Positions 4,036-62,758 of a stretch of DNA of 64,000 bases are shown piece by piece (positions within the stretch are counted from its first letter, which is position 1; each line of letters begins with the position of its first letter). The notes beneath the pieces are model-generated. The model was not told the origin of the DNA, searched no databases, and saw only the letters and a list, made by a program, of their open reading frames with translations. Origin of the DNA: Pseudomonadota bacterium (GTDB lineage: Bacteria; Pseudomonadota; Alphaproteobacteria; UBA11222); assembly GCA_049323435.1 (NCBI GenBank), contig JBMOMX010000032.1:18555-82554 (forward strand). The letters are read 5' to 3'. A program made the translations under genes and the position numbers.

Positions 4036-4079
4036 CATAAGCTCCGTCAACGGAGCAATCAGCGGGAGAAAGACAAAAA

Positions 4080-4952
4080 ATGAAGGACGTAAAAGGTAAA
4101 GTGGCGTTCGTCACGGGCGCCGCCAGCGGCATGGGGCTTGGCATGGCGCGCGCCTTTGCCGAGGCGGGCATGAAAGTGATGCTGGCCGATATTGAGGCGG
4201 GGCCGTTGCAGCGCGAAACCGGCGCGCTGAAGGCCAAAGGCTATGATGTGGATTGCGTGCAGCTGGATGTCACTAAAATGGCGGATGTTCATGCGGCTGC
4301 GAAAAAAACCGTGGACCGCTTCGGCAAGGTGCATGTGCTCTGCAATAATGCCGGCATTGGCGTGTTCGGAAAAAGCGAAACCGCCAATATCAAAAACTGG
4401 CAATGGGTGGTGGATGTCAATCTGTGGGGCGTCGTCTACGGGTTGCAGGCCTTTGTGCCGCTGATCCTCTCACATGGCGAAGGCGGGCATATTGTCAGCA
4501 CATCCTCCATGGCGGGCATGGTGGGCTTGAGCGGCGCGGGGCCCTACAATGCCACCAAATTCGCGGTAGTCGGCATTATGGAAACCATGATGGCGGAAAA
4601 CCGCAAGAGCAATCTGGGCATCTCTGTGCTGTGCCCGGGCGCGGTGGCGACCAATATTTCCACCTCCACCCGCAACCGGCAGGATGAATATGGCGGTGCC
4701 GCGCCGCCTAGCTCCAAGGAACGCATTGCCGATGTGCTGGCGCAGGGCCTGCATCCCGATGTGGTGGGCAAACAGGTGCTGGAGGCGATTATCGACAACC
4801 AGCCCTATATTTTCACCGATCCCGCCATGCGCAAAATGATTGAATCGCGTCATAAACGCCTGATGGCGGGCTATGACTGGGCCGACAGATGCAAGGCGCT
4901 GTCCGGCCAGAAACAGGCAGGCGGTATCCCCGGCGGCATCTTGAAGGAATAG
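4080..4952 (+). CDS. SDR family oxidoreductase, LigD/LigL-like, tandem paralog 2
   Basis: 290 aa; collinear with 3178..4035 and most residues identical. Confidence 0.85.
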   Translation: MKDVKGKVAFVTGAASGMGLGMARAFAEAGMKVMLADIEAGPLQRETGALKAKGYDVDCVQLDVTKMADVHAAAKKTVDRFGKVHVLCNNAGIGVFGKSETANIKNWQWVVDVNLWGVVYGLQAFVPLILSHGEGGHIVSTSSMAGMVGLSGAGPYNATKFAVVGIMETMMAENRKSNLGISVLCPGAVATNISTSTRNRQDEYGGAAPPSSKERIADVLAQGLHPDVVGKQVLEAIIDNQPYIFTDPAMRKMIESRHKRLMAGYDWADRCKALSGQKQAGGIPGGILKE

Positions 4953-5077
4953 CGGCGCGCTTGACCTGCTGTCAGGATTAGGCAAAGCTGCGGCAACAAT
5001 AATTGCGGGGCGTGAGCAAAAGCCCCGCTTCACATCAGCACAGGGAGGCGTCTGTAACAACAGGCGGCGCAATCAGC

Positions 5078-5950
5078 ATGAAAGACGTAAAGGGAAAAAC
5101 AGCCTTCATCACTGGCGGCGCCAGCGGTATGGGGCTTGGCATGGCGCGCGCCTTTGCCGAGGCGGGCATGAAAGTCATGGTCGCCGATATTGAAGCCGAA
5201 GCGGCCAAACGCGCGGCGGCTGAATTGACCGGCAAGGGCCATGAAGCCGCCTGGGTGCAGGTGGATGTCACCAGTCTGGACGCCATGAAGGCGGCCGCGC
5301 AGAAAACTGTGGATACTTTCGGCAATGTGCATGTGCTCTGCAACAATGCCGGCATCGGCGTGTTCGGGCACAGCGAAACCTGTGACATGCGTAACTGGCA
5401 CTGGGTGGTGGATGTCAATCTTTGGGGCGTGGTGCATGGGCTACAGGCCTTTGTGCCGCTGATGCTCGCGCATGGCGAACCCTCCCATGTCTCCAGTACG
5501 GCATCAATGGCCGGCATGGCGGGACTGCGCGGCGCGGGGCCATACAATGCCACCAAATTCGCCGTGGTGGGCATCATGGAAACCTTCGCGGCCGAACATC
5601 GCAAGGATAATATCAGCGCCTCGGTGCTGTGCCCGGGTCTGGTCGCCACCAATATCGCCAGCTCCACCCGCAACCGGCAGGACAAATATGGCGGCGCGGC
5701 AAAAGCCAGCGACAAGGGCATTTCCGCTGCCGAGCTGGCCAAGGGGTTGAACCCCGACGCGGTCGGGCGCGAGGTGCTGGAGGCCATTCTGGAAGATCAG
5801 TTCTATATTTTCACCGATCCCAGCCTGCGGCACATTGTCGAAACCCGCAGCAAGCGTATCCTTCAGGGCTATGACTGGGCGGCAAACTGTAAATCGCTGA
5901 AAGGCGAAAAGCAGGCCGATGGGTTGCCCGGCGGCCTGTTGACGAAATAA
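5078..5950 (+). CDS. SDR family oxidoreductase, LigD/LigL-like, tandem paralog 3
   Basis: The track ORF 5003..5950 has an N-terminal extension. I place the start at the ATG at 5078 because MKDVKGKTAFITGG aligns with the starts of the other paralogs and an RBS-like cagggagg lies upstream. Confidence 0.8.
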   Translation: MKDVKGKTAFITGGASGMGLGMARAFAEAGMKVMVADIEAEAAKRAAAELTGKGHEAAWVQVDVTSLDAMKAAAQKTVDTFGNVHVLCNNAGIGVFGHSETCDMRNWHWVVDVNLWGVVHGLQAFVPLMLAHGEPSHVSSTASMAGMAGLRGAGPYNATKFAVVGIMETFAAEHRKDNISASVLCPGLVATNIASSTRNRQDKYGGAAKASDKGISAAELAKGLNPDAVGREVLEAILEDQFYIFTDPSLRHIVETRSKRILQGYDWAANCKSLKGEKQADGLPGGLLTK

Positions 5951-6006
5951 GCAATAATCACAATCCAGCAAGGGAGGCGTCTGCTTTGGCGGGCGGTAAA
6001 AACAGT

Positions 6007-6864
6007 ATGAAAGACGTAAAAGGCAAAGTGGCGTTTATTACCGGGGCGGCCAGCGGCATGGGCCTGGGCATGGCCCGGTCCTTCGCTGCGGCAGGCATGA
6101 AAGTGATGATCGGCGATATTGAACTGGCCCCCGCCCAGCGCGCCGTGGACGAGTTGAAAGCCAAGGGGCTGGAGGCCGCCTGTGTGCAGGTCGATGTCAC
6201 CAGTCTGGAATCGGTGCAGAACGCCGCCAAAAAAACCGTGGACACGTTCGGCAAGGTGCATGTGATCAGCAATAATGCCGGTATCGCGGTCGGCGGATAC
6301 AGTGAAACATGCAGTATCCGCAACTGGAACTGGGTGGTGGATGTCAATTTGTGGGGCGTTGTGTACGGCTTGCAGGCTTTTGTGCCGCTGATCCTGTCAC
6401 ATGGCGAAGGCGGGCATGTGATCAGCACCGCCTCGATGGCGGGCATGGTCGGGTTGCGCGGCGCGGGCCCCTATAACGCCACCAAATTTGCGGTTGTCGG
6501 CATCATGGAAACTTTCGCAGCCGACCATCGCAAGGATAATATCGGCGCATCCGTGCTGTGCCCCGGCGTGGTGGCCACCAATATCGGCAATTCAGGCCGC
6601 AACCGGCCCGATCAATATGGCGGCGCGGTTGCGCCCAACCCGCGCGACCGGACGGCGGAAATGCTGGCGCAGGGCCTTAATCCCGATATTGTCGGCGATC
6701 TGGTGCTGGAAGCCATGCAGGCCGATCAATTATATATCTTCACCGATCCAGGCCTGAAACATCTGATCGAAACCCGCTGCAAGCGTATCACCGACGCCTA
6801 TGACTGGGCCGCCAACAGCAAATCACTGAAAGGCGTGAAACAGTCAGGCCTGCTGCCGGGATAG
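6007..6864 (+). CDS. SDR family oxidoreductase, LigD/LigL-like, tandem paralog 4
   Basis: Track ORF 5986..6864; start placed at the ATG at 6007 (MKDVKGKVAFITGAASGMGLG). The upstream leader agggaggcgtctg is shared with paralog 3. Confidence 0.8.
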   Translation: MKDVKGKVAFITGAASGMGLGMARSFAAAGMKVMIGDIELAPAQRAVDELKAKGLEAACVQVDVTSLESVQNAAKKTVDTFGKVHVISNNAGIAVGGYSETCSIRNWNWVVDVNLWGVVYGLQAFVPLILSHGEGGHVISTASMAGMVGLRGAGPYNATKFAVVGIMETFAADHRKDNIGASVLCPGVVATNIGNSGRNRPDQYGGAVAPNPRDRTAEMLAQGLNPDIVGDLVLEAMQADQLYIFTDPGLKHLIETRCKRITDAYDWAANSKSLKGVKQSGLLPG

Positions 6865-6924: not shown

Positions 6925-7022
6925 GGCTGACCCCCACCCCGGCCCTCCCCCTTTCAGGGGGAGGGAGTCCTTGCGTCTGGCGTCCCCTCCCCTTGAAAAG
7001 GGGAGGGACAGGGAGGGGATCA
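6925..7022. repeat. REP-like nested-hairpin element, family A (ccctcccc...ggggaggg)
   Basis: gacccccaccccggccctccccctttcagggggagggag ... tcccctccccttgaaaaggggagggacagggaggggatc, with two short perfect hairpins inside a larger imperfect palindrome. A second copy lies at 18713..18848. Confidence 0.7.
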
Positions 7023-8018: not shown

Positions 8019-9353
8019 GTGAACACTGATAATGGGCCGGAGAAAACCGGCCTGATCCCTGCGGATTTGCCGGTGGTGTATCGCACCGGCTATGTCCGGT
8101 ATGTCGTCGGCATACTGACCGTCGTATATGTTTTCAATTTCATGGACAGGCAGATCCTGTCGATCCTGATGCAGCCGATCAAGCAGGAAATGCAGCTTAG
8201 CGACACCGAGCTGGGCTTTCTTGGCGGGGTCGCCTTTGCCATATTTTACGCGACCCTGGGCGTGCCGATTGCACGGCTGGCGGATCAATATTCGCGGGTT
8301 AATCTGATCACCATCTGTCTGGGCCTGTGGAGCTGTATGACCGCGCTGTCGGGCCTGGCGGCGAATTTCATGCAATTGCTGGCGGCGCGCATCGGGGTGG
8401 GCATTGGCGAGGCGGGCGGCGGCCCATCATCGCATTCGCTGATTTCGGATTATGTGCCGGCCCAAAACCGCTCCACGGCGCTGGGCGTGTTTGCGCTGGG
8501 CGTGCCGATCGGGCTGATGGTGGGTTTTCTGGCGGGCGGCTGGCTCGAAGAAAATTATGGCTGGCGGGTGGCGTTTATGGCGGCGGGCATTCCGGGTCTG
8601 ATTCTCGCCGTCATTCTGCGGCTGACGGTGCGTGAACCCAAACGCGGCCATTCGTCGGGCGAGACGGACATCATCCATGCAGATCAACCCTCGATGAAGC
8701 AGGTGGCCAACCATATGCGCGCCATCCGCACCTTCCGGCTGCTGGCCATTGCCGCCGCGATGCAGGCCTTTGCGGGCTATGGCCTGATCCAGTGGCTGCC
8801 CAGCTTCCTCACCCGCAACCATCAGATGAGCAGCACGGATATCGGCTTCTGGCTGGCGATGACGATTGGCGCGGGCGGCGCGATCGGCACGATGGGCGGC
8901 GGTTATTTCGCCGATCTGCTGTCGCGTAAAAATCTGGCCTGGCAATTATGGCTGCCGGGCATAGGCAGCCTGTTGGGCGCCTTTATCTCGTTCGGCATAA
9001 TGCTTTCACCCGGCATACCGGTGCTGCTGTTTTTTGTGTTTCTGCATTCGGTGGCGGTCAATGCCTATCTCGGCCCGTCTTTTGCGGTGACGCAAACTTT
9101 GTCGCCTGTGCGGATGCGCGCGCTGGCCAGCGCGCTGCTGCTGTTCGCGATCAATATTGTTGGCCTCGGGCTTGGGCCGCAAATGGTGGGCGCGCTAAGC
9201 GATCTGCTGCGCCCGGCTTTAGGCGATGAATCGCTGCGTTACGCCATACTGGCGGGGTGCATGACCTATTTTGTGGCGGCGCTGTTTTTCGCTTTGGCGG
9301 GGCGTGCGGCGCGCGTGGATTTTGCAACTGCGGCGCGGCTGGCGGGGGATTAA
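8019..9353 (+). CDS. MFS transporter, tandem paralog 1 of 3
   Basis: 444 aa and highly hydrophobic; MFS signature around PIARLADQYSR and GVGIGEAGGGP. Collinear with the next two ORFs. Confidence 0.85.
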   Translation: MNTDNGPEKTGLIPADLPVVYRTGYVRYVVGILTVVYVFNFMDRQILSILMQPIKQEMQLSDTELGFLGGVAFAIFYATLGVPIARLADQYSRVNLITICLGLWSCMTALSGLAANFMQLLAARIGVGIGEAGGGPSSHSLISDYVPAQNRSTALGVFALGVPIGLMVGFLAGGWLEENYGWRVAFMAAGIPGLILAVILRLTVREPKRGHSSGETDIIHADQPSMKQVANHMRAIRTFRLLAIAAAMQAFAGYGLIQWLPSFLTRNHQMSSTDIGFWLAMTIGAGGAIGTMGGGYFADLLSRKNLAWQLWLPGIGSLLGAFISFGIMLSPGIPVLLFFVFLHSVAVNAYLGPSFAVTQTLSPVRMRALASALLLFAINIVGLGLGPQMVGALSDLLRPALGDESLRYAILAGCMTYFVAALFFALAGRAARVDFATAARLAGD

Positions 9354-9368
9354 CGGGGGATTGGATCA

Positions 9369-10670
9369 TTGATCAGCAAGGCGCAGACTGAATCCGGCAA
9401 TCCGGTGGTATATAGCCGGGGCTATGTCAATTATGTCATTGGCGCGCTGGCGATGGTCTATCTCGTCAATCTGACCGACCGTCAAATCCTTGCCATTCTG
9501 ATGCAGCCGATCAAGGAGGAAATGCAGCTTTCCGACACCGAGCTGGGTTTTCTGGGCGGCATCGCCTTCGCAATTTTTTATTCGACCCTCGGTCTGCCGA
9601 TTGCGCGGCTGGCGGATAAATATTCCCGCGTCAAAATTCTGTCTGTCTGTCTGGCCTTATGGAGCGTCATGACGGCGCTGTGCGGTCTGTCGTCGAATTT
9701 CTGGCAGTTGCTGGCGGCCCGCATCGGCGTGGGCGTCGGCGAGGCCGGCGGCAGCCCGCCATCGCATTCGCTGATCGCCGATTATGTTCCGGTGGAAAAG
9801 CGCGCCACCGCCATCGGTCTGTTCGCCGTCGGCGTGCCGCTTGGCCTTTTGTCGGGCTATCTGCTGGGCGGCTGGCTGGAGGAATTATATGGATGGCGGG
9901 CGGCGTTCATGGCCATCGGGCTGCCGGGCCTGATTGTGTCCCTGATTGTGTGGCTGACCGTGGAAGAGCCGCCGCGCGGAAATTCGCAGGGCGGCGTGAA
10001 GGTGCAGGCGGAAACACCGCGCATCATGGCGGTGGTGCGGCATATGTCGGCCGTGCCATCCTTTCTGCATCTATCGCTGGCGACCGCCATGCAGGGCTTC
10101 GCCACTTATGGCATCTATCAGTGGATACCCAGTTTCATGTCGCGCAGCTATCAGATGCAAAGCGGCGAAATAGGCAGCTGGCTGGCGCTGGTGATTGGCG
10201 TGAGCGGCTTTTTCGGGACTATCCTGGGCGGCTATTTCGCGGATGCCCTGTCGCGCCGCGACATGCGCTGGCAGATGTGGCTGCCGGGCCTGTGCATGTT
10301 GCTGGCGCTGCCCGCATGCCTTGGCATGTATCTTTCTTTCGGGCTGTATCTGTCCATGTTCTTTCTCGCGCTGGTGGTTTTTCTCGTGAATGTATGGCTT
10401 GGACCCGGACTGGCCATCACCCAGACGCTGGCGCCGGTGCGGATGCGCGCCATGGCCAGCGCACTGCTGCTGTTTGTGCTGAATATTATCGGCCTTGGCA
10501 TGGGGCCGCAGGCGGTCGGCATCATGAGTGATCTTCTCGCGCCCGCCTATGGCCAGGAATCGCTGCGTTATGCCCTGCTGATTTCCAGTTCTTTTTACCT
10601 TTGGTCGGCGTATCATTTCTGGAAAGCAGCTGTAACCCTGAAACCGGACCTGAAACAGGCGATAGAATAA
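9369..10670 (+). CDS. MFS transporter, tandem paralog 2
   Basis: 433 aa; the same conserved blocks (DRQILAILMQPIKEEMQLSDTELGFLGG, ARLADKYSR, GVGEAGGSPPSHSLIADYVP). The apparent start codon is TTG at 9369. Confidence 0.8.
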   Translation: MISKAQTESGNPVVYSRGYVNYVIGALAMVYLVNLTDRQILAILMQPIKEEMQLSDTELGFLGGIAFAIFYSTLGLPIARLADKYSRVKILSVCLALWSVMTALCGLSSNFWQLLAARIGVGVGEAGGSPPSHSLIADYVPVEKRATAIGLFAVGVPLGLLSGYLLGGWLEELYGWRAAFMAIGLPGLIVSLIVWLTVEEPPRGNSQGGVKVQAETPRIMAVVRHMSAVPSFLHLSLATAMQGFATYGIYQWIPSFMSRSYQMQSGEIGSWLALVIGVSGFFGTILGGYFADALSRRDMRWQMWLPGLCMLLALPACLGMYLSFGLYLSMFFLALVVFLVNVWLGPGLAITQTLAPVRMRAMASALLLFVLNIIGLGMGPQAVGIMSDLLAPAYGQESLRYALLISSSFYLWSAYHFWKAAVTLKPDLKQAIE

Positions 10671-10692
10671 ATATAATAACAAGGGGGAAAAC

Positions 10693-12021
10693 ATGACCAG
10701 CCTTGACGAGGACGGCGCCGCAACGGCCGCGCTGGTGCCCGCACATGAACCGGCGGCGCATTTCAGCAAACCCTATATCAATTATGTCATCGGCATGCTG
10801 ACGGTGGTTTATGCGGTCAATCTTATCGACCGGCAAATTCTGTCGATCCTGATGCAGCCGATCAAGCAGGAGATGCAGCTTTCCGACACGGCGCTGGGAT
10901 TTTTATCCGGCATCGCCTTTGCGATGTTTTACGCCACGCTTGGCATACCGATTGCCCGGCTGGCGGATAAAAGTTCGCGGGTGAATATTATTTCCATCAG
11001 CCTGGCGCTATGGAGCTTTATGACGGCGCTGTGCGGCGCAGCACAGAATTTCTGGCAATTGCTGGCGGCGCGCATTCTGGTCGGCGTGGGCGAGGCGGGC
11101 AGCGGGCCTTCCTCACATTCGCTGATCGCCGATTATGTGCCGCTGGAGACACGCAGCTCCGCGCTGGCGATTTATTCGCTGGGCATTCCCATCGGCATTA
11201 TGATTGGTTTTTCGGTTGGCGGCTGGCTGGAGCAGTTATATGGCTGGCGTATTGCGTTCATGGCCGTGGGTGTACCCGGTCTTATACTGGCGGTCATTGT
11301 CCGTCTGACATTGCGCGAGCCGCCGCGCGGCCATGCAGATGGCGTGGCGCGGGCGGATAAAGCCGAACAGCCGCCGCTGCGCGAAGTCGCCAGCACCATG
11401 TGGAAACGCAAATCCTTCCGTCATCTGGTGACGGCGATCGGCATTCAGGCCATTTCGGGCTATGGCGTTCTGATCTGGGTGCCAAGCTTTCTGCATCGCA
11501 GCTATCATATGACCAGCGCCGAGGTTGGCACGGCCTTGGCGCTTATTCTTGGCATTGGCGGCATCATCGGCACGGCGGCGGGCGGCTATCTGGCCGACCA
11601 TCTGGCAAAGCGCACGGTGCGCTGGCAATTATGGATACCGGCGCTGGGGGGCCTGGTGGCGGTGCCGTTTAGTTTCGGGACTTATCTTTCCGGCACAGCC
11701 TTTGCCACACTGGCCTGGTTTGCGGTGCCGATCATTTTCGCCAATCTGTATCATGGCCCGGTATTCGCCATGGCGCAGGCGCTGGCGCCGCTTAGAATGC
11801 GCGCCATGGCCGCGGCGATCCTGTTATTCATGAGCAGCTTTGTCGGCATGGGCATCGGACCGCAACTTGCGGGCATTATCAGCGATTTGCTCGCACCCGC
11901 CTATGGCGCGGATTCGCTGCGCTATGCGCTGCTGTGTATTTCCATGGCGCATATATGGTCGGCGGCGCATTTCTGGCTGGCGTCAAAAACCTTGCAGGAG
12001 GACTTGGCGATTGCGCAATAA
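10693..12021 (+). CDS. MFS transporter, tandem paralog 3
   Basis: 442 aa; same blocks, with a GGGG RBS upstream. Confidence 0.85.
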   Translation: MTSLDEDGAATAALVPAHEPAAHFSKPYINYVIGMLTVVYAVNLIDRQILSILMQPIKQEMQLSDTALGFLSGIAFAMFYATLGIPIARLADKSSRVNIISISLALWSFMTALCGAAQNFWQLLAARILVGVGEAGSGPSSHSLIADYVPLETRSSALAIYSLGIPIGIMIGFSVGGWLEQLYGWRIAFMAVGVPGLILAVIVRLTLREPPRGHADGVARADKAEQPPLREVASTMWKRKSFRHLVTAIGIQAISGYGVLIWVPSFLHRSYHMTSAEVGTALALILGIGGIIGTAAGGYLADHLAKRTVRWQLWIPALGGLVAVPFSFGTYLSGTAFATLAWFAVPIIFANLYHGPVFAMAQALAPLRMRAMAAAILLFMSSFVGMGIGPQLAGIISDLLAPAYGADSLRYALLCISMAHIWSAAHFWLASKTLQEDLAIAQ

Positions 12022-18712: not shown

Positions 18713-18848
18713 GCTGACCCCCACCCCGGCCCTCCCCCTTTCAAGGGGAGGGAGTCTCCCAACGCAGCTTTTATATATTTATAAAAACCATTGTCAGCCC
18801 CAGAATTCCCTCCCCTTGCAAAGGGGAGGGCCAGGGAGGGGATCAGGT
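18713..18848. repeat. REP-like nested-hairpin element, family A, second copy with an AT-rich internal insert
   Basis: ctgacccccaccccggccctccccctttcaaggggagggagtc ... tccctccccttgcaaaggggagggccagggaggggatca; same arms as 6925..7022. Confidence 0.7.
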
Positions 18849-28133: not shown

Positions 28134-29549
28134 ATGATTGTCAAAGGCGCAAGTTTGGAACAATTATTGAAGCGCCCGGCCAGCGCCCTTCGCGCCGTGC
28201 TGTTTTATGGACCCAATGAGGGGCGTGTCCGGGAACATGCCCAGCGCGTGACCCAGGCGATTGTCGCGGATATACATGACCCGTTTCGCATTGCCAATCT
28301 GACCGGAGCCGCGCTTAAGGAAGATCCTGCACTTCTGGGTGATGAGGCGGCTGCGATTGCCATGACCGGCGGGCGCCGGGTAATACGCCTGAGCGGGGCC
28401 GGGGATGCCCTGCTTCCGGCATTTCTGAATTTTCTGCAAGACCCCAAAGGCGATTCGCTGATCGTCATGGAGGCGGGAGCACTGACCAAAACCTCCAAAT
28501 TGCGCAAAACTTTTGAGGACAGTCCGTTATGCGCAATCGCTGCCTGTTATGAAGACAGTGCAGCCGATCTGTCGGCAATGGTCACTGATCACTTGGCGCA
28601 GAACGGGCTGAGGATTACTTCAGATGCTAAGGACTATCTGCTGCAATGTTTGGGCGAAGACCGCATGGCCAGCCGACAGGAACTGGACAAGCTGGTTTTA
28701 TATAAGGGATTTTGGACACGCCAACGGAACAGTAGAGATATCAAAGATGTCATGGCAGGCGTCGGTAGCCAGGATACCGGCGATATCCCAGGTATCGGAG
28801 ATATACCTGACACAATAGATAGCCATGATGGCGCAGATATCCTGGCTATCGCGGATAGCAGAGGTATCACCGGTACCAATACTATCCTGGATTGCACGGA
28901 TATCCATGATGCCATAGCTATCGCAGATGTCTTAGAGACCCCTGACATCAGGGGTATAAAAGATACCGGCGGTATCATGGATGTCCATGACCGCTCTGAT
29001 AGCCATGATAGCTCTGATAGCCATGATGGCCATGATGGCTATGATGGCCATGATCTCCGGCATGGCATGGCGTCCAAGGATAATCTGGTGCGCTTGCAGG
29101 ATGTGCAGGCCTGTATTGGCGATGGTGCCGTTCACAGTCTCGATGAAATTTGTGACTGCCTGTGTCTGGGCGATCCTGAAGCGCTGGATGCGCATATTCA
29201 GCGCGCTTTTGCGGGCGGGGTTTCCCCTATCACTATCTTGCGTGCGCTCAGCACCCATCTGATGAAACTGCAACTGGTACTCGCGGCGCAGGCGAAGGGC
29301 AGTTCTGCCGATATGGCGCTGCGGGTGCTGCGGCCGCCTTTGCATTTCTCAAGAATCACGGCATTCCGCCGCATGCTGCCTATGTGGAATACGCAGTTGG
29401 CCGCACATGCGCTGGAACAGGTGCTGCGGACCGAGGCGGCCTGTAAAACCACCGGCGCACCGGATTTCAGCCTGTGCAGCCAGGCCCTGCTTCAGCTGGC
29501 GCATCTGCCGCGCCGCGCCCGGACGGCCCCCCCGGCCGGGCTGAGTTAA
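28134..29549 (+). CDS. holA: DNA polymerase III subunit delta, carrying a ~120-aa low-complexity D/H/I/G-rich insertion
   Basis: The N-terminal ~195 aa and the C-terminal ~150 aa align with HolA architecture (LRAVLFYGPNEG..., C-terminal helical domain). The protein is 471 aa against a typical length of about 340 aa. The excess is a repeat-encoded segment at roughly 28725..29085. Confidence 0.75.
   Translation: MIVKGASLEQLLKRPASALRAVLFYGPNEGRVREHAQRVTQAIVADIHDPFRIANLTGAALKEDPALLGDEAAAIAMTGGRRVIRLSGAGDALLPAFLNFLQDPKGDSLIVMEAGALTKTSKLRKTFEDSPLCAIAACYEDSAADLSAMVTDHLAQNGLRITSDAKDYLLQCLGEDRMASRQELDKLVLYKGFWTRQRNSRDIKDVMAGVGSQDTGDIPGIGDIPDTIDSHDGADILAIADSRGITGTNTILDCTDIHDAIAIADVLETPDIRGIKDTGGIMDVHDRSDSHDSSDSHDGHDGYDGHDLRHGMASKDNLVRLQDVQACIGDGAVHSLDEICDCLCLGDPEALDAHIQRAFAGGVSPITILRALSTHLMKLQLVLAAQAKGSSADMALRVLRPPLHFSRITAFRRMLPMWNTQLAAHALEQVLRTEAACKTTGAPDFSLCSQALLQLAHLPRRARTAPPAGLS
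28725..29085. repeat. degenerate in-frame coding minisatellite inside holA (gatatc / gatagccat / gatggccat units)
   Basis: AT-richer than the flanks. Repeated GATATC and (gat[ag]gc[ct]atgat) units encode ...DIPGIGDIPDTIDSHD...SDSHDSSDSHDGHDGYDGHD. All six frames stay open across it, the usual signature of a simple repeat. Confidence 0.7.
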
Positions 29550-30461: not shown

Positions 30462-31313
30462 TCAGGCGGCTTTTGCCTGGCGCTCCTGCCGGAGAATTTC
30501 TCCAGCAAGTTTTATATAGGCCCGGCTGCCTGCGCAATGCATATCATAGATCAGCACAGGCTTTCCGTAAGAGGGCGCTTCTGAAACCCGCACATTTCTG
30601 GGTATCACCGTGTCATAAACTTTTTTACCCAAAAATCCGCGCACATCCAGGGCCACCTGATCCGAAAGATTATTGCGGGAATCAAACATGGTCAGGACAA
30701 TGCCCTGAATTTCCAGCAGCGGATTCAAAGTGTCACGTACCATATCGACGGTGCGTAATAATTGGCTCAACCCTTCCAGCGCGAAAAACTCACATTGCAA
30801 CGGCACCAGAATCGAATCTGCCGCCGCCAGCGCATTGATCGTGAGCAAAGAAAGTGCGGGCGGGCAATCAATCAGAATATAGCTAAAGGGAAGCTGCCCT
30901 GCTTGCGCCGATTGTAACAGCATATCCCGCAGGCGAAAATTCCGCCGGGGCAGGTTTATCAATTCCAGCTCCGCACCGGAAAGATCGACCGAAGATGGCA
31001 GCACGCTGAGACCCGGAATGGAAGAAGCCTGCACCGCCTGCACCAGATCGGCCTCACCCATCAGCACTTCATAGATGGAACATTCCCGTGCCTGCTGGCT
31101 GACCCCCAAACCCGTGCTGGCATTACCTTGCGGGTCCAAATCAATCACCAGCACCCGCTCGCCAACCGCCGCCAATGCGGTGCCCAGATTAATTGCGGTT
31201 GTGGTTTTCCCCACCCCGCCTTTCTGATTGGCAACCGCAATCAGACGTGCGCCGCCAAGGTTTAATGTTTCACGTGAAACAGGCAAAGGTCGCGATACAG
31301 GAAAATCAGACAC
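30462..31313 (-). CDS. parA: chromosome partitioning ATPase ParA (Soj)
   Basis: Deviant Walker A KGGVGKTTTAINL. The annotated 5' end overlaps a parS site, so the true start may be downstream of 31313. Confidence 0.9.
   Translation of the reverse strand: MSDFPVSRPLPVSRETLNLGGARLIAVANQKGGVGKTTTAINLGTALAAVGERVLVIDLDPQGNASTGLGVSQQARECSIYEVLMGEADLVQAVQASSIPGLSVLPSSVDLSGAELELINLPRRNFRLRDMLLQSAQAGQLPFSYILIDCPPALSLLTINALAAADSILVPLQCEFFALEGLSQLLRTVDMVRDTLNPLLEIQGIVLTMFDSRNNLSDQVALDVRGFLGKKVYDTVIPRNVRVSEAPSYGKPVLIYDMHCAGSRAYIKLAGEILRQERQAKAA
31266..31281. promoter_or_regulatory. parS centromere site (perfect 16-bp palindrome TGTTTCACGTGAAACA)
   Basis: Exact match to the canonical parS palindrome, inside the annotated 5' end of the parA ORF. 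Confidence 0.8.
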
Positions 31314-33983: not shown

Positions 33984-33999
33984 TGTTTCACGTGAAACA
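33984..33999. promoter_or_regulatory. parS centromere site (perfect TGTTTCACGTGAAACA)
   Basis: Second exact copy, in the mnmG-mnmE intergenic region, abutting the mnmE stop codon. Confidence 0.8.
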
Positions 34000-42481: not shown

Positions 42482-43516
42482 CTATTTATCTACCGGGCAG
42501 CTGGAAGCTGTGCTGGAACAGTATGAGGATACTGCCAGCGCATCCTCAACAAGCTGTGACAAACCCTGGATAAACTGTTTTTCTACCCCCAGGGCGGCAA
42601 TACGCAGATAATAAGGCACACCCGCTGCTTCCGCCAGATGTCTGTATTCCATATCCAGCTCCACCAGAGTTTCGGAATGTTCCGAGACAAAGGCAATTGG
42701 GACTAGAATAACCCCCTGTTTTGCCGCCCCTGCCGCCCGCAGCCTGTCCTCGGTCGATGGCCCCAGCCATTTCAGCGGGCCTACCCGGCTTTGATAACAA
42801 ATCTCCCAGTCCTGTGCTGACAGCCCAAGCCTGGCAGCAATCGCCCCGGCGGTACGCGCAACCTGTTCCGGATAGGGATCACCGGCATTGACAATTTGCT
42901 GCGGCAATCCATGGGCTGAAAACAGAAGCCTGGCTTTACCGATGCTGCCGGGCCCGATGAAGCTGGCGGCCTGAGCCTGGATCAGCGCTGCATGTGCGGC
43001 AATGAAATCCGGCTGTTCCGGATAACAGCAAATTGTATGCACCTCGGCCGTTAAACCGGCCTGCTTGGCTGTGGCGCGCCATTCCTGCAATGAAGAGCGG
43101 GTCGTGGTTGTCGAGAATTGCGGATAGAGCGGCAACAGTACCACATGATCGGGTGCAAAATCTGTTACCTGCTGCACAATTTCCGCCGCCCTGGGTGTCC
43201 AGTAACGCATCACCGTGAAACAGCGTATAGCGCTGAAACCGGTGTTTTTGAGAACATTCTCCAGCGCCTCAGCCTGTTGCAGCGTCTCGGGCAATATTGG
43301 TGAACCACCACCGATTTTTGCATAGATTTCCTGCGCCGTGCCTGTACGGCGCCAGGCAATAAACCGCGCCAGCAACCAGCGGATTATCCCCGGAGCACGG
43401 ATAATGTTAGGATCAGAAAACAGATTGATCAGAAATGGCCGTACCGCCGACAGCTGATCAGGGCCGCCCAGATTGAACAGTATGACGGCAATCCGGCTGG
43501 ATTTCATGCCTGCCAT
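42482..43516 (-). CDS. hemH: ferrochelatase
   Basis: 344 aa; N-terminal IAVILFNLGGPD motif and ferrochelatase architecture. Confidence 0.9.
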   Translation of the reverse strand: MAGMKSSRIAVILFNLGGPDQLSAVRPFLINLFSDPNIIRAPGIIRWLLARFIAWRRTGTAQEIYAKIGGGSPILPETLQQAEALENVLKNTGFSAIRCFTVMRYWTPRAAEIVQQVTDFAPDHVVLLPLYPQFSTTTTRSSLQEWRATAKQAGLTAEVHTICCYPEQPDFIAAHAALIQAQAASFIGPGSIGKARLLFSAHGLPQQIVNAGDPYPEQVARTAGAIAARLGLSAQDWEICYQSRVGPLKWLGPSTEDRLRAAGAAKQGVILVPIAFVSEHSETLVELDMEYRHLAEAAGVPYYLRIAALGVEKQFIQGLSQLVEDALAVSSYCSSTASSCPVDK

Positions 43517-44541
43517 TGTTTCACAAACTGTACCAGTTGCGCTACATTTTCAGGCGGCGTCTGCGGGACAATGCCATGTCCCAGATTAAAGATAAACCGT
43601 TGCGGTCCCATCATTGTCAAAATCCGTTCCGCTTCCTGCAACATAGTTTTACCGCCGCACACCACTAACAATGGATCAAGATTACCCTGTACCGTCAGTT
43701 TCGGTTGCAGCCTTTCCCTCGCAAATTGCAGTGGTAATGTGCTATCCATACTGATCGCATCTATGCCTGTATGCAGGGCATAATCCTCATATAATAAACC
43801 CGCGCCTTTTGGAAAACCGATAATCGGAATTTCCGGAAAGACAGCACGTATCCGCGTAATAATTTTCTTTGCCGGTTCGATACACCAGCGCTGAAATTCT
43901 CCCTCCCGCAGCGCGCCTGCCCAGCTATCGAAAATCTGTAATATCTCAGCCCCGGCTTTAACCTGCCCGATAAGATATTCTGCCGTCACGTCTATCAGAA
44001 TATCCATCAACATCGCAAAAGCTTGGCGGTCCTGATAAGCCCAAAGCCTTGCTGCTGCCTGATCCCGGCTGCCTTCACCTGCAACCATATAGCTGGCAAC
44101 AGTCCAGGGAGCACCGGCAAAACCGATCAGACACACATCCTCCGGCAGACGTTGGCGCAATAATTTCACCGTTTCATAAACCGGCATCAGATGTGCGGCT
44201 GCACCTTCCGGCTTCAGTAATGCCAGGTCCTGGCGTGACTGAATCAGAGGCGACAGAAGCGGCCCCAGCTTTTCTTCAAACCGCACCTGCTGCGACAAGG
44301 CATCGGGTATCACCAGAATATCAGAAAACAAAATTGCCGCGTCAAAACCAAACCGCCGGATCGGTTGTAAGGTCACTTCAGCCGCCAGTTCAGGCGAATA
44401 GCATAAATCCAGAAATGATCCGCCCTTCGCCCGCACCGCTCGATATTCTGGCAAATAGCGCCCGGCCTGGCGCATCAACCAGACAGGCGGACGCTGCAAT
44501 TTCTCGCCGCGCAAGGCGCGTAATAATAATTTTTGGCTCAT
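43504..44541 (-). CDS. hemE: uroporphyrinogen decarboxylase
   Basis: 345 aa; N-terminal PPVWLMRQAGRYLPEYR signature. Confidence 0.9.
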   Translation of the reverse strand: MSQKLLLRALRGEKLQRPPVWLMRQAGRYLPEYRAVRAKGGSFLDLCYSPELAAEVTLQPIRRFGFDAAILFSDILVIPDALSQQVRFEEKLGPLLSPLIQSRQDLALLKPEGAAAHLMPVYETVKLLRQRLPEDVCLIGFAGAPWTVASYMVAGEGSRDQAAARLWAYQDRQAFAMLMDILIDVTAEYLIGQVKAGAEILQIFDSWAGALREGEFQRWCIEPAKKIITRIRAVFPEIPIIGFPKGAGLLYEDYALHTGIDAISMDSTLPLQFARERLQPKLTVQGNLDPLLVVCGGKTMLQEAERILTMMGPQRFIFNLGHGIVPQTPPENVAQLVQFVKQWQA

Positions 44542-44877
44542 TTACTGGATAATTCCTGCTGATGTCAGCTCACCCCGGTTTTCCACACTCTCTTTTAATC
44601 TATTTATATTTATAAAAAAGGATGAAGTGGTAGTAGATGGCCTGAATAGAAGGGATAAAATTATATCCCGCTTTTGTTCGTTTTTCCGCTCCTGAAAGTA
44701 TCAGGCCTGCAGCCGGGATTCCGCTTATCACCCGTGATTCACAGACTGGGAATTTAGTTATTCCTGATCTATTATCCCCCATGTGAAAAGTCCGCAAAGT
44801 CAGGATGTTTTTCCGATGCGCCGCATTAGGCCTGTTTATTCACTGGATTCACCTGATTCACAGCCTATGCTGGTTCA
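44542..44877. other. putative chromosomal replication origin (oriC), hemE-type as in Caulobacter Cori
   Basis: A 336-bp divergent intergenic region between hemE (-) and the DUF299 gene (+). DnaA-box-like 9-mers: TTTTCCACA (one mismatch to TTATCCACA), TGATTCACA twice, TTATCCCCC, TTATCACCC, TTATTCACT. AT-rich tract ttttaatctatttatatttataaaaaag. Gene-strand orientation flips at this point. Confidence 0.6.
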
Positions 44878-45741
44878 ATGACTGAAATGACCGCACCTTC
44901 ATCGCCCCGGCTGGCTACCTATTTTCACCTGCATTTGGTTTCCGATGCGACCGGTGAAACCCTGAATTCCGTTACCCGGGCGGCTGTAGCGCAATTTGAC
45001 AGCGGTATTCCCATTGAACATACCTATGCGCTGGTACGCACTACCCGCCATCTTGACCGTGTTTTAAGCCAGATCGAGGATATGCCGGGAATTGTGATTT
45101 ATACGCTGGTAAATTACGATCTGCGCGACATGCTGGAACAACGCTGTGCGGAATTACAGCTACCCTGTCTTTCCGTGCTGGATCCCGTTGTGCAGATCAT
45201 CGGCACTTATCTTGGTTCGGAAATTTCGCACCGGCCTGGCGGACAGCATAGCCTGACGCCGGAATATTTTCAGCGCATTGAAGCGCTGCAATATACTATG
45301 GCGCATGATGATGGCCAATCGCTGCATGATCTGCATTCTGCGGATATCATTCTGCTCGGCGTAAGCCGCACCTCCAAAACGCCAACCTGCATCTATCTGG
45401 CCAATCGCGGATTAAAAGCTGCGAATATTCCTATAGTCCCGAATATTGCCTTGCCGGCCTCACTGCCTGATTTGAAAAAACCGCTGATCATCGGCCTGAC
45501 AACCAATCCCGACAGGTTGATTCAGGTGCGCCGCAACCGGCTTTTATCCCTGAACGAGAATGACGAGACCAGCTACACGGATCTGGATATAGTGATGGAG
45601 GAAGTGCGCTATGCAAGACGCCTTTTCGCCCAGTATGGCTGGCCGGTCATTGATGTGACCCGCCGCTCCATAGAGGAAACGGCTGCGGCCATTCTGAATC
45701 TGTTTTCCAGCCGCGCCAGCGGTAAGACCGGTGCATTATGA
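44878..45741 (+). CDS. PEP synthetase / pyruvate,phosphate dikinase regulatory protein (DUF299 kinase/pyrophosphorylase)
   Basis: 287 aa; YFHLHLVSDATGET N-terminus and a P-loop GVSRTSKT. This gene family flanks Cori in Caulobacter. Confidence 0.8.
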   Translation: MTEMTAPSSPRLATYFHLHLVSDATGETLNSVTRAAVAQFDSGIPIEHTYALVRTTRHLDRVLSQIEDMPGIVIYTLVNYDLRDMLEQRCAELQLPCLSVLDPVVQIIGTYLGSEISHRPGGQHSLTPEYFQRIEALQYTMAHDDGQSLHDLHSADIILLGVSRTSKTPTCIYLANRGLKAANIPIVPNIALPASLPDLKKPLIIGLTTNPDRLIQVRRNRLLSLNENDETSYTDLDIVMEEVRYARRLFAQYGWPVIDVTRRSIEETAAAILNLFSSRASGKTGAL

Positions 45742-46699: not shown

Positions 46700-48175
46700 A
46701 TGCAGCCTATTGGCACTCCAGAAATCAGGCAGCGAATTGAACGGGATAACCCGTGGTGGGCCAACGCCGATTTAGAAATTTTGGAAGCCAAATATCAGCG
46801 GCGTGTTTATTTCCCCTCATTCAAAGCATTAGCGCTGAACTTTGACGTGCGGCGCGCGGCGATTCTTCTTGGCCCCCGGCGCGTAGGCAAGACTGTAATT
46901 ATTAAGCAATTAATTCACGAAGCAATACAGGACGGTATCGATCCAAAACAAATTCTCTATGCAAGCATTGACGCTCCTATTTATTCTGGAATCTCTCTCG
47001 ACAAATTTATGGAATTCCTGCCAACCGCATCAAGAGACAAGCGCAGCGTGGTGGTTTTTGACGAAATCCAATATTTAAGGGACTGGGAAATCCACATGAA
47101 AGACCTGGTGGATAACTATCCGAGAACCAAGTTTATCGCATCTGGATCAGCCGCTGCCGCGCTTCGTTTAAAGAGTCGAGAGTCCGGAGCAGGGCGATTT
47201 TCCGAGTTCATGTTGCCGCCTCTTACATTCTATGAGTTCTTAAAATTTATTGGAGATGACGAAAAACTGATTTCAGAAAATGGTCCGGGTCAATATGAGG
47301 CAAAAGATATAGAAGCGCTTAATTCCAGATTTGTAGATTATCTGAATTTTGGGGGCTATCCAGAGGCCGTACTCAATGAAGAAGTCAGACGGAATGCAGA
47401 ACAATTTATCAGAAGCGACATCATTGACAAAGTATTGCTCAAAGATTTGCCAAGCCTTTACGGAATAAGTGATATCCAGGGCCTCAATAAATTATTTTCA
47501 TTCCTGGCGTATAACGCGGGCTCGGAAGCAAACCTCGAAAACATATCCAAAGAGTCCGGCCTGGCAAAGCCGACTATAAAAAAATATATCGAATATCTGG
47601 AAAACGCATTCCTGATCCTCAAGGTGTCGACAGTGGATGAAAACTGCCGGACTATGAAGCGAGAGCGCAATTTTAAGATTTACCTGAATAATCCATCAAT
47701 GAGAGCGGCGCTTTTTAAGCCTGTCGGAATTGAAGAGCAGGAAAAAATTGGTCACCTCGCGGAATCAGCTATTTTCTCGCAATGGCAACACGCGCCGGGA
47801 TTTCAGAGATTAAGATATGCGCGTTGGCGCAATGAGGGCGAGGTGGATATTGTATACCTTAGGCCTTCCGATGAAAAACCGTTGTGGATTGGCGAAATTC
47901 GATGGTCAGACAGAGTGAAAAATCAATTTGGCGAACAAACAAAGTCGCTATCAACATTGCTGAAAAATCATCCAACCATAAATGCGGCAATTCTTACATC
48001 GAAAACAGTCCATTCATTGAACCGCGAGCTTGAAGGCAGACACTTTGAGATTTGGCCAAGTTCACTTTATTGTTACAGCGTAGGAAGAAATATCACAGTA
48101 GCTCTTGACCAATTAGGGAGCGGGCGTTCCAGGAACCAGGCATATCAAATAAAGTATAAGGAAAATAAACCATGA
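46700..48175 (+). CDS. AAA+ ATPase of the AAA_14/DUF4143 (COG1373-like) family; likely horizontally acquired
   Basis: 491 aa; N-terminal NPWW motif, Walker A GPRRVGKT, Walker B VVFDEIQ. The gene and its upstream 110 bp are visibly AT-richer with different codon usage (AAA, ATT, TTA frequent). It sits between aroE and coaE, which are usually adjacent or separated only by maf. Confidence 0.7.
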
Positions 48176-52152: not shown

Positions 52153-52354
52153 AATAATGACCAACGCTATTTTAATAAAGTCTCGCTTATTAAAATAGTG
52201 ATCATTGTTATTTAAAATTATATGCCTTTACTAAAATAATGTCCTGGGCTATTTTAGTAGACGGTGAAGATACACGTTATAAGTGAATCAATCGCTATAT
52301 TCACTACCATGCATTGGATCTGGCTGGTCCGGTCGATACACTGAAAGCTGATCG

Positions 52355-53488
52355 ATGAAATTTGAGTCATTCAGCGCTGGCGAATGGAAAAAGCAATATC
52401 AGTATAAAAGCTTTTCTCCTGCATTGATAAATCATGAATGGGGCTGGGATGACCCGCGCATTAATGTTTTGCTTGAACAGGCAATGCGGGCGCTTGGTGA
52501 ATTGAACGCTTTTTCTTTTATTGTCCCAAATGTAGACATTTTTATACAAATGCATATCGCCAAAGAGGCACACACTTCAAATCGCATTGAAGGGACGAAA
52601 ACAGCCTTTGAAACGGAACTGATGCCGGAAGAAGCGATACCACCAGAAAATCGTGACGATTGGCATGAGGTGCAGAATTATATGGCCGCCATGAATATGG
52701 CGGTTCAGGAATTACAGCGCCTGCCGGTCTCAACCCGGTTATTGTGTCAAACACATGCAATTGTGATGCAGGGGGTCAGAGGTCAACATAAAACTCCCGG
52801 AGAACTACGCCGGGCGCAAAACTGGATCGGTGGTTCAGGGCCAATGGATGCAGCCTTTGTGCCGCCGCATCCAGATGAGGTATCCGGTCTGATGGGCGAT
52901 CTGGAAAAATTTCTGCATAATGAGGAAATAATGGTGCCCGATCTGGTGCGGGCCGCCATTGCGCATTATCAGTTCGAGACTATCCACCCCTTTAATGACG
53001 GTAATGGTCGGGTCGGGCGGCTGTTGATTACACTTTATCTCGTGAGCAAGGGGATTCTGCAAAAGCCCTCGCTTTATCTTTCGGATTTTTTTGAACGCAA
53101 CCGGTCTTCCTATATTGACGCTCTGATGCGGGTGCGCACTGCAAACGATATCGGACATTGGGTGCGATTTTTCCTTGCCGGGGTTTTGGAAATTTCAAAA
53201 AAAGGACGCGACACGTTCAAGGCTATTCAGGTGTTACGCGAAGAAGCGGAGAATCAATGTTTGAGCCTTGGAAGGCGGGCGCCAATGGCGAAGCGTGCGT
53301 TGACCTTGCTTTACCGCCGTGTTGTTGTATCGGCCAAAGATATAGAAATAGAGCTTGGCGTAACCAGCGCGACAGCAAACGCAATCATTCGCGATTTTAT
53401 AAAAATGCAGATATTACGCGAAACTACTGGAAAGAGCCGGCGCCGGTTATATGTGTTTGACCGGTATTTACAGCTGTTCATGGACTGA
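52355..53488 (+). CDS. Fic family protein, class II (intramolecular inhibitory helix); likely horizontally acquired
   Basis: 377 aa; Fic motif HPFNDGNGRVGR. An inhibitory S-x3-E-G motif (SNRIEG) lies N-terminal to it. There is a C-terminal winged-helix-like tail. The gene and its 200-bp upstream region are strongly AT-rich. Confidence 0.85.
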   Translation: MKFESFSAGEWKKQYQYKSFSPALINHEWGWDDPRINVLLEQAMRALGELNAFSFIVPNVDIFIQMHIAKEAHTSNRIEGTKTAFETELMPEEAIPPENRDDWHEVQNYMAAMNMAVQELQRLPVSTRLLCQTHAIVMQGVRGQHKTPGELRRAQNWIGGSGPMDAAFVPPHPDEVSGLMGDLEKFLHNEEIMVPDLVRAAIAHYQFETIHPFNDGNGRVGRLLITLYLVSKGILQKPSLYLSDFFERNRSSYIDALMRVRTANDIGHWVRFFLAGVLEISKKGRDTFKAIQVLREEAENQCLSLGRRAPMAKRALTLLYRRVVVSAKDIEIELGVTSATANAIIRDFIKMQILRETTGKSRRRLYVFDRYLQLFMD

Positions 53489-55670: not shown

Positions 55671-56344
55671 GCCAGCAACGCATGGCCATAATGGATAAAA
55701 TTCGGGCCTCGCATCGGGCGCGCGGCATTGGCTCTTCGCAACAGGCGGTGGATGCGCGGCTGAATGCGCGGGCGCAAAATCTTGTTCCTGCGCGCGGGCG
55801 GCTGACTGGCGATGCGCTGCGCGCCCGGTTAGAACAGTTTGCCGTGAAATCCCAGGCCAGCATTGTCTCGGTGGCGGCCCCGCGCGACGTGCCGCAGGCC
55901 ATTGGCGCTTATCTGACGGCGCATCATCTGCCTGGCCCGGTGCGGCTTTGCGGCGACGGCTTTCTGGCCGCAATGCCCTGGGATCTGATTGCCAGATTTA
56001 ATCCCGCTACCGGCGCGGTGCAGGAAACAGATGGTGTTGGGGTTTCTGTGGCGCTGTGCGCTATTGGCGAAACCGGCACGCTGATGTTGATCTCCGGCCC
56101 CAATGCCGCCAGCGGGCTGAATTTTCTTCCGCCCGCGCATATTATTGTGCTGCGCGCGGGTGATATAGTGGGCGCGCTCGAAGATGGCTGGGCGCGCCTG
56201 CGCCAGGCAGGAAACGGCCAGATGCCGCGCACCGTCAATCTGATCACCGGCCCCTCGCGCACCGCCGACATTGCCCAGACCATGTATATGGGCGCGCATG
56301 GGCCAAAGCATCTACATGTGATTATTGTGGATAACCATGCCTAG
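55667..56344 (+). CDS. lutC: lactate utilization protein C
   Basis: Track ORF 55352..56344 is an N-terminal over-extension. The in-frame ATG at 55667 overlaps the lutB stop (ATGA) and gives about 226 aa with a LUD-domain-like architecture. Confidence 0.7.
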   Translation: MSQQRMAIMDKIRASHRARGIGSSQQAVDARLNARAQNLVPARGRLTGDALRARLEQFAVKSQASIVSVAAPRDVPQAIGAYLTAHHLPGPVRLCGDGFLAAMPWDLIARFNPATGAVQETDGVGVSVALCAIGETGTLMLISGPNAASGLNFLPPAHIIVLRAGDIVGALEDGWARLRQAGNGQMPRTVNLITGPSRTADIAQTMYMGAHGPKHLHVIIVDNHA

Positions 56345-62066: not shown

Positions 62067-62194
62067 ATCATGACGCAATCAGCTCAAACCGTCCGGGCGC
62101 GCCTTGATGTCATTCCCCGGCCTGTGCGGTTAGTGTCATTGCGAGAATTAGATGTAATCGAATCTGATTGGCTCACATGCTGGGATAAAATCAA

Positions 62195-62758
62195 ATGACA
62201 GAAGACAGCGCCCGGGATGCTTTGAAAGCCACCCGCATCGAAGAGATCGAAAGCTTTGCCGGCAATGATCTGGCGGAACTGTGCGATCTGGCCACAGATG
62301 CAATTGTCGATGGGGACGGTTTTCTGTGGATAAAGCCGCCGCCGGTGCGGATTCTGGAAAATTACTGGAACGGGGTTTTGCTGGTGCCCGAGCGCACCTT
62401 GTTTCTGGCGCGGCTGGATGGCCGCATTGCCGGTACAGCGCAATTATTGCGCCCATCCGTCAATAATGAATCCGGGGCCTTTGCGGCGCAGATCACGACT
62501 TTCATCATAGCGCCCTGGGCGCGCCGGCATGGTCTGGGGCGGGAACTGATGCTGCAATTGCAGGAGGTGGCGAAAGCCCGGAACTACACCACGCTCGATC
62601 TTGATGTGCGCGCCGACCGCACCGCGGCGATACGCCTGTTCGAAGGTCTTGGTTTTGAACGATGGGGCGTCAAGCAGCGCTATGCGCGCATTCACGGGCG
62701 CTATCTCAGCGGTTATTATTACAGCAAATATCTGGATACGGACGGCGCTGCGGCATGA
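62195..62758 (+). CDS. GNAT family N-acetyltransferase
   Basis: 187 aa; acetyl-CoA-binding motif region [10 protein letters not shown]. Inserted between hisH and hisA; its stop overlaps the hisA start (ATGA). Confidence 0.7.

Follow-up and report, generated by a model that had tools for sequence, protein, structure and literature searches.

The 336-bp spacer between the divergent genes hemE and DUF299, at positions 44542–44877 of the 64,000-nucleotide stretch of contig JBMOMX010000032.1 analyzed here (hereafter, the window), is very probably the site at which chromosome replication begins (oriC) in an uncultured alphaproteobacterium and, as judged from its sequence, an origin of the hemE-linked type. 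In and around the spacer, we observed DnaA-box motifs, their clustering and conservation, a conserved gene order, and a local switch in base skew. A putative oriC between hemE and DUF299 had been proposed in an initial annotation of the window, and this proposal is supported by the position of the spacer, its cluster of boxes, their conservation, a switch in GC skew at third codon positions (GC3 skew), and nearby parS sites. In the spacer, the well-known class of hemE-linked origins very probably gains a new member, at the location expected for Alphaproteobacteria, and the understanding of alphaproteobacterial replication initiation is left unchanged. The lineage recurs in many metagenomes, and annotation of its origin helps to orient assemblies and to estimate growth rates from peak-to-trough read depth. 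Further, the comparison with related loci presented below shows which of the boxes are under constraint and at what place unwinding is likely to begin, and it points to a conserved module of box, trinucleotide repeat, and AT tract in hemE-type origins.

Position, box cluster, and replication polarity of the hemE–DUF299 spacer

The spacer is bounded on the left by hemE (uroporphyrinogen decarboxylase; 43504–44541, minus strand; Pfam URO-D, E = 5.5e-122) and on the right by the DUF299/COG1806 kinase-pyrophosphorylase gene (44878–45741, plus strand; Pfam Kinase-PPPase, E = 3.6e-93). Searches against Pfam identified rho, hemJ, hemH, and hemE in the left flank, all on the minus strand, and DUF299 (Kinase-PPPase), aroE, coaE, and dnaQ in the right flank, all on the plus strand; beyond dnaQ lie secB (minus strand, 49.5 kb) and then Tim44 and MltA. 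Farther to the left, at 29.5–35.4 kb, we found mnmE, gidA, gidB, parA, and parB, and the gene order of the window can be written as parB-parA-gidB-gidA-mnmE...rho-hemJ-hemH-hemE | DUF299-aroE-coaE-dnaQ-secB. In Caulobacter, the origin (Cori) is located between hemE and duf299/COG1806 (PMC6393856, PMC1914354), and the hemE/COG1806 boundary is common to other alphaproteobacteria (Ioannidis et al., PMC1914354). The initial annotation had read the order hemE | DUF299-aroE-coaE-dnaQ as a Cori-type context, a gene order that the Pfam matches confirm, but it had overlooked an ATPase gene between aroE and coaE. It had also described a switch in gene orientation at the spacer, which holds locally but not across the window, where plus-strand genes are found on the left at 35.7–40.3 kb and secB is a minus-strand gene on the right.

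By scanning one genome per species, we obtained 16 hemE–DUF299 loci (each denoted by an L number) from uncultured Alphaproteobacteria or named alphaproteobacterial metagenome-assembled genomes, and we read these to 10 kb on either side. Seven are from close relatives (DUF299 85–88% and hemE 72–78% identical) and nine from distant ones (50–59%). The hemE–DUF299 pair is divergent in 16/16 loci, and in all 16 the GC content of the spacer is below that of its flanks and the number of box-like 9-mers is 2–8 compared with 0.3–1.6 expected. The order rho-hemJ-hemH-hemE | DUF299-aroE-coaE-dnaQ-secB-Tim44 is kept in most of the related loci as far as the contigs extend; in L008, the hemE–DUF299 pair alone is visible. 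We noted two variations in the right flank. The ATPase gene between aroE and coaE (AAA_14/DUF4143, 491 aa; 46700–48175, plus strand; GC 0.44) is absent in 7/7 close relatives, where aroE abuts coaE directly, and strain-level copies obtained from other metagenomes contain it. It has the appearance of an insertion specific to the lineage and is located 1.8 kb from the putative origin. In L009–L016, DUF299 and aroE are separated by a gap of ~650–1170 bp, and in the window clade the two genes overlap or adjoin. This gap probably holds maf, as in Caulobacter, and the lack of maf between DUF299 and aroE in the window clade is a difference from Cori.

The spacer has a GC content of 0.43 versus 0.57 for the window, which is the second-lowest among the 17 intergenic regions of at least 150 bp in the window, and its density of DnaA boxes (1.79 per 100 bp) is the highest of these regions. 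With up to 2 mismatches to TTATCCACA allowed, the spacer contains 6 matches compared with 1.16 in dinucleotide shuffles of its own sequence (P ~0.001), and at least six such matches were reached by 0.1% of 336-bp windows. When we used TTATNCACA, the alphaproteobacterial DnaA-box consensus of Ioannidis et al. (PMC1914354), with up to 1 mismatch, we found 36 matches in the window (i.e. no overall enrichment), with 4 in the spacer versus 0.19 expected (Poisson P = 4.6e-5). Box density by itself is not enough to distinguish the spacer, because the low-GC ATPase gene at 46.7–48.2 kb reaches 5–6 boxes per 336 bp; this gene holds 12 loose boxes versus 4.15 in shuffles, an excess that is probably the result of coding bias. 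The spacer also contains four GANTC (CcrM-type) sites (44717, 44736, 44846, and 44855), a number reached or exceeded in 0.65% of 336-bp windows. Three of the four are inside box-like 9-mers (TGATTCACA twice and GGATTCACC once), and the related spacers carry 1–4 such sites, conserved in part. As the initial annotation had stated for the spacer, there is no full CtrA site: TTAA-N7-TTAA is absent from the whole 64-kb window and from 16/16 related spacers. Because CtrA sites are usually absent outside Caulobacter and were not seen at most other alphaproteobacterial origins (Marczynski and co-authors, PMC4468827), their absence is no argument against an origin. A consensus scan for integration host factor (IHF) sites gave no match to WATCAANNNNTTR or looser in the spacer. 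Elsewhere in the window are its only two perfect TTATCCACA boxes, one at the junction of a LUD-domain gene and an Smr gene (56326–56334, minus strand) and one in the 595-bp spacer at 62067–62661 upstream of a His_biosynth gene (62325–62333, minus strand); these may be isolated DnaA regulatory sites.

We aligned the window spacer with those of the 7 close relatives (8 genomes in total) and expressed conservation as the mean column identity and as the percentile among spacer 9-mers. The column identity of the whole spacer was 0.72 compared with 0.56 at fourfold-degenerate DUF299 sites of the same 8 genomes, and in the conserved boxes and the AT tract it was 0.92–0.97, a range whose lower end was reached by 0/100,000 nine-column draws from the neutral DUF299 sites. 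The alignment thus indicates purifying selection on four boxes and on the AT tract. Six DnaA-box-like 9-mers had been listed in the initial annotation; all are present and, taken together, they are conserved (P = 0.026, circular shift), but three of them (TTATCCCCC, TTATCACCC, and TTATTCACT) are individually not conserved, and a conserved minus-strand box at 44650–44660 had escaped notice. The plus-strand box TTTTCCACA (44579–44587; 1 mismatch), which faces the AT tract, has an identity of 0.96 (99th percentile) and is unchanged in 6/8 aligned genomes, L004 having one substitution and L007 two. The box that had been missed is the degenerate TTATCCCTT (44650–44658, minus strand; 3 mismatches), which in the relatives is TTATCCCCG (5/7), TTATCCCCA (L007), or GTGTCCCCG (L004); the block GGGATAAAA at 44652–44660, which is a minus-strand TTATCCCC box, has an identity of 0.97 (99.7th percentile). 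The plus-strand box TGATTCACA at 44735–44743, which has G at position 2 and holds a GANTC site, has an identity of 0.93 (97th percentile) and is TTATTCACA in three relatives. Ahead of DUF299, three abutting plus-strand 9-mers, TTATTCACT-GGATTCACC-TGATTCACA (44836–44862), end 15 nt before the start codon; within this array, TGATTCACA at 44854–44862 has an identity of 0.92 (95th percentile), and the nonconserved TTATTCACT at 44836–44844 has as its aligned counterpart, across a 9-bp indel, a TTATCCAC-type box. In the relatives, the array consists of two or three units (e.g. TTATCCACA-TGATTCACT-TAATTCACA in L004 and CTATCCACC-TGATTCACA in L001). The remaining 9-mers that are not conserved are TTATCACCC (44725–44733; 3 mismatches to TTATCCACA) and TTATCCCCC (44772–44780, plus strand; identity 0.71, 44th percentile), the latter being polymorphic among same-species strains at 44778/44779. 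Further, in six strain-level copies of the locus obtained from other metagenomes, five spacer positions show differences from the window, and all five fall outside the four conserved boxes and the AT tract.

The polarity of base composition around the spacer was determined from skew. Raw GC skew mostly tracked gene orientation (with an effect of ~0.06), the cumulative minimum of the window being at 44–47 kb, and we therefore replaced it with per-gene GC3 skew and an orientation term. At 29.5–44.5 kb, GC3 skew was −0.01 to −0.45 in the minus-strand genes and −0.04 to −0.19 in the four plus-strand genes; at 44.9–64 kb, most plus-strand genes had positive values, as did both of the minus-strand genes (+0.07 and +0.08). 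This switch of sign at the spacer, from negative to positive and seen over 29–64 kb of the window, has the polarity of an origin. With the orientation term included, the corresponding side effect in the related loci was +0.096 (95% confidence interval, 0.065–0.131) for the close relatives and +0.051 (0.032–0.071) for the distant ones, the latter despite an orientation effect of opposite sign. We consider the skew evidence from the window and the related loci to be supportive, not decisive. Two perfect parS sites (TGTTTCACGTGAAACA) are present, both to the left of the spacer, at 31266–31281 (13.3 kb from the spacer, beside parA and parB) and at 33984–33999 (10.6 kb from the spacer). Two other polarity markers were set aside. 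The sequence GGGCAGGG, which resembles the FtsK orienting polar sequence (KOPS), occurs only twice, at 26478 (minus strand) and 51168 (plus strand), and although both sites agree with an origin at 44.7 kb, two are not enough. For the 7-mer GGCAGGG, 9/11 cases agree, but this motif was picked post hoc.

The AT tract and a candidate unwinding module next to hemE

The initial annotation had pointed to a 28-bp AT-rich tract as a possible DNA-unwinding element. This tract, at 44592–44619, consists of A/T at 26/28 positions and ranks first in A/T content among the 28-mers of the 64-kb window; its core, TATATATTTTTATAAAAAA, is conserved among the relatives, and it probably also overlaps the hemE promoter. 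It begins two bases past a trinucleotide-periodic, DnaA-trio-like element on the minus strand (44622–44636; 5'-CTA CTA CCA CTT CAT-3', complement 3'-GAT GAT GGT GAA GTA-5'), which is separated from the minus-strand box at 44650 by a 13-nt spacer (44637–44649; minus strand CTATTCAGGCCAT) that is GC-rich at the trio end. In 8/8 close genomes, the box-to-trio spacer is 13 nt long, and the elements follow one another on the minus strand toward hemE in the same order, namely box, 13 nt, repeat, CC, T/AT tract, purine run, and TGTGGAAAA; this final element is the TTTTCCACA box of the plus strand, facing back into the AT tract. The repeat in the close genomes can be written as CTA CTA nnn CTA/CTT CAA (complement 3'-GAT GAT NNN GAT/GAA GTT-5'), and trios 1, 2, and 4 are kept as GAT/GAA/GAC in all 8.

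This arrangement resembles the basal unwinding system (BUS) of B. subtilis (PMC6669920, PMC8287927), which reads 3'-AATAGGTGT TTAGGTGT CCGG GAT GAT AAT GAA GAT GAT...-5' (Pelliciari et al., Table S1, PMC8287927). The two have in common the order of box, short spacer, 3'-GAT-5' repeat, and AT-rich DNA just distal to the trios, the orientation of the box, and the 13-nt spacer, which is the commonest box-to-trio spacing (Pelliciari et al., PMC8287927); they differ in that the window box has 3 mismatches and that its third trio is GGT and its fifth GTA. The strict BUS rules (Pelliciari, PMC8287927) call for a box with no more than 2 mismatches that faces the trios from a distance of 0–16 nt and for at least 3 consecutive NAN trios. 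The orientation and the spacer of the window box at 44650 fit these rules, and the TTATCCCCG/A boxes of the relatives have 1–2 mismatches; a scan by the rules recovered the minus-strand module in L002 (GAT GAT AAT GAT), L003 (GAT GAT GAT GAA), and L001 (GAT AAT GAT, with a 16-nt spacer) but not in the window. The BUS predictions published for alphaproteobacteria score low (3–8). Our strict-rule scan also returned lenient, A-rich matches beside TTTTCCACA, which we did not trust in AT-rich DNA.

In the distant lineages, the same place is occupied by one or two minus-strand boxes of the TCCCC/TCCAC type followed by trinucleotide runs, which are CTA CTA CAA CAA CAA CAA in L015, CAA CTA CCA CTA CCA CCA in L013, CAA CTA CAA CAA CTA in L010, and CTA CTA CTA in L016. 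The CAA units of these relatives (complement GTT) do not have the central adenine of the published trio pattern. A T/AT tract comes after the repeat in L010, L014, L015, and L016, and the stretch in L013 is weakly AT-rich. In the window and in L003, L004, L010, L011, L013, L014, and L015, the hemE start is 77–99 bp away from a minus-strand run of at least three CNA units, and in L016 this distance is 48 bp; from the background, 0.135 such runs would be expected per spacer when both strands are counted. We tentatively raise the possibility that the hemE-linked origins of several alphaproteobacterial lineages share an undescribed hemE-proximal unwinding module, which would consist of one or two TCCCC-type (W-box-like) boxes, a CTA/CAA repeat (complement 3'-GAT/GTT-5'), and a T/AT tract and would represent a BUS variant with a non-adenine trio centre. 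If this doubtful proposal is true, the shared BUS-like module would locate the unmapped unwinding site of Cori-type origins.

Proposed initiation and alternative explanations

From these features, we infer how the spacer might function. DnaA would bind to moderate and weak boxes, i.e. TTTTCCACA at 44579, TGATTCACA at 44735, the array at 44836–44862, and the minus-strand TTATCCC box at 44650. The last of these faces hemE and is followed by 13 nt, the CTA-CTA-type repeat, and the AT tract; because this order and orientation are those of a BUS, a DnaA-ATP filament would grow from the 44650 box along one of the two strands of the repeat and melt the AT tract at 44592–44619, which the TTTTCCACA box, also facing inward, flanks on the opposite side. 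Unwinding would start at 44592–44636, driven from the 44650 box. Helicase loading would then give rise to a leftward fork through hemE-hemH-hemJ-rho and a rightward fork through DUF299-aroE-coaE-dnaQ, with both flanking gene groups co-oriented with their fork, and ParB bound at the two parS sites 10.6–13.3 kb to the left would segregate the origin region.

The main rival to the origin reading is that the spacer is only a divergent promoter or regulatory region, serving hemE on one side and the DUF299-aroE-coaE-dnaQ operon on the other, that its 9-mers are transcription-factor sites (possibly for DnaA as a regulator) and its AT tract a -10/UP element, and that the origin is elsewhere, e.g. near dnaA. 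Both flanking operons need promoters within the 336 bp, where there is a sigma-70-like match that overlaps both the TTTTCCACA box and the AT tract, and the abutting box array ends close to the DUF299 start codon; the hemE promoter would be an equally good reading of the conserved AT block. Several further observations weigh against an origin at this place or against the way in which we propose that it is unwound. When all open reading frames (ORFs) of at least 200 aa were compared with Pfam, no dnaA was found within the 64 kb, i.e. within 19 kb to the right and 44 kb to the left of the spacer, and the spacer contains no perfect DnaA box, the best having 1 mismatch. The module in the window falls short of the published BUS pattern, having 3 mismatches in its box and two consecutive NAN trios, not three, before the GGT in GAT GAT GGT GAA GTA. 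Finally, GC3 skew at 1–29 kb is about zero to positive in both gene orientations, not negative as it should be in a left replichore, and because of this discordant part a single skew breakpoint at 44.7 kb is not the best fit to the whole window and was rejected as a model. The skew changes at ~29 kb, near the convergence of holA and parB, and a rearrangement, acquired DNA, or an assembly join are possible reasons. However, a promoter region leaves unaccounted for the orientation-independent change in the sign of GC3 skew at the spacer, which is seen in the window and the 16 related loci. The position matches that of the experimentally mapped Cori, and there are parS sites nearby. Moreover, the arrangement of box, 13-nt spacer, repeat, and AT tract is no promoter architecture. 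The two roles are also compatible, as the Caulobacter hemE promoter sits inside Cori and is required for replication. We consider it unlikely that the spacer is a promoter region and nothing else.

The wrong sign of the skew in the left 29 kb would also fit a relic, in which ancestral hemE-linked elements have been kept and the active origin has moved after a rearrangement. This explanation gains from the window boxes being weaker than those of the relatives (TTATCCCTT for TTATCCCCG and TTATTCCTG for TTATCCATG), from the one broken trio, and from the insertion of the ATPase gene 1.8 kb away. Yet, the AT tract and the four best boxes have remained intact and do not vary among same-species strains from several metagenomes, the local skew switch is sharp, and synteny is undisturbed on either side; a relic thus seems to us highly improbable. 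The least credible alternative is that the 9-mers, in a spacer that is AT-rich, match by chance and have no function. If 2 mismatches are allowed, the window does contain 172 loose matches, and the match density of the low-GC ATPase gene is similar, but shuffles of the spacer itself give a P of ~0.001, and the positions of the boxes are conserved across 8 genomes that show saturation at neutral sites. The conservation analysis effectively refutes a chance origin of the boxes.

Comparison with known origins and other features of the window

Overall, assignment of the spacer to the hemE-linked origins is in keeping with the features by which Brassinga 2001/2002 and Ioannidis 2007 (PMC1914354) define that class, of which the window has the hemE/COG1806 boundary, the box cluster, the AT content with an AT tract, and the site conservation but not the IHF site. 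Of the features that mark the stricter Cori class, it has the concentration of GANTC sites and not the CtrA site. In Cori itself, there are two G-boxes (TGATCCACA) and five weak W-boxes (TCCCCA), together with five GANTC sites and a region rich in A/T (PMC4285127). The window spacer resembles Cori in its position between hemE and duf299, its divergent flanking genes, its AT-rich region, its several weak or moderate DnaA boxes with none perfect, and its GANTC (CcrM) sites, some of which overlap boxes; at the level of single boxes, TGATTCACA has G at position 2 like the G-box, and TTATCCCC contains TCCCC like the W-box TCCCCA. It differs from Cori in having neither a TTAA-N7-TTAA CtrA site nor an IHF consensus, in its length (336 bp versus >400 bp for Cori; PMC1914354), and in the absence of dnaA within 19 kb on the right or 44 kb on the left.

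The layout is essentially identical to that of the chromosomal oriC of Azospirillum, which lies between yqfL (DUF299) and hemE and has six DnaA boxes in mixed orientation (bioRxiv 10.64898/2026.09.14.751567; DoriC ORI97017823). There, parAB is ~12.4 kb off, and two palindromic 16-nt parS sites are ~9.9 and 11.8 kb from oriC (bioRxiv 10.64898/2026.09.14.751567), compared with 10.6 and 13.3 kb in the window. The Azospirillum oriC is itself a prediction (Ori-Finder/DoriC), and the likeness described here is one of layout. The predicted origins of the Rickettsiales (Wolbachia, Rickettsia, and Ehrlichia; PMC1914354) share with the window spacer the hemE boundary, few DnaA boxes, an AT-rich spacer (300–600 bp), and CtrA sites that are variable or absent; they differ in that they carry IHF consensus sites and in that the partner gene of hemE in Wolbachia is COG1253, not DUF299.

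Several features of the window outside the spacer were also noted. A scan of the whole window gave no Rfam match. Between leuS and parB is a 471-aa ORF (28134–29549, plus strand) for which Pfam gave nothing at E ≤ 1e-4; going by its location, this is probably holA, either divergent or over-extended as an ORF. On the right, a Fic/DOC gene (52153–53488 region; GC3 0.49) is preceded by a 202-bp spacer with a GC content of 0.35 that includes the 40-mer with the highest A/T content in the window. L001 is the only close relative to carry this gene, which may be a small mobile or accessory insertion. Paired inverted repeats, CCCTCCCC...GGGGAGGG, occur twice per intergenic region at 6943–7007 and 18730–18830 and may be a hairpin element resembling repetitive extragenic palindromic (REP) sequences. 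Finally, the plus strand carries four tandem short-chain dehydrogenase paralogs at 3178–6864 and, one gene on, three tandem major facilitator superfamily (MFS) transporter paralogs at 8019–12021.

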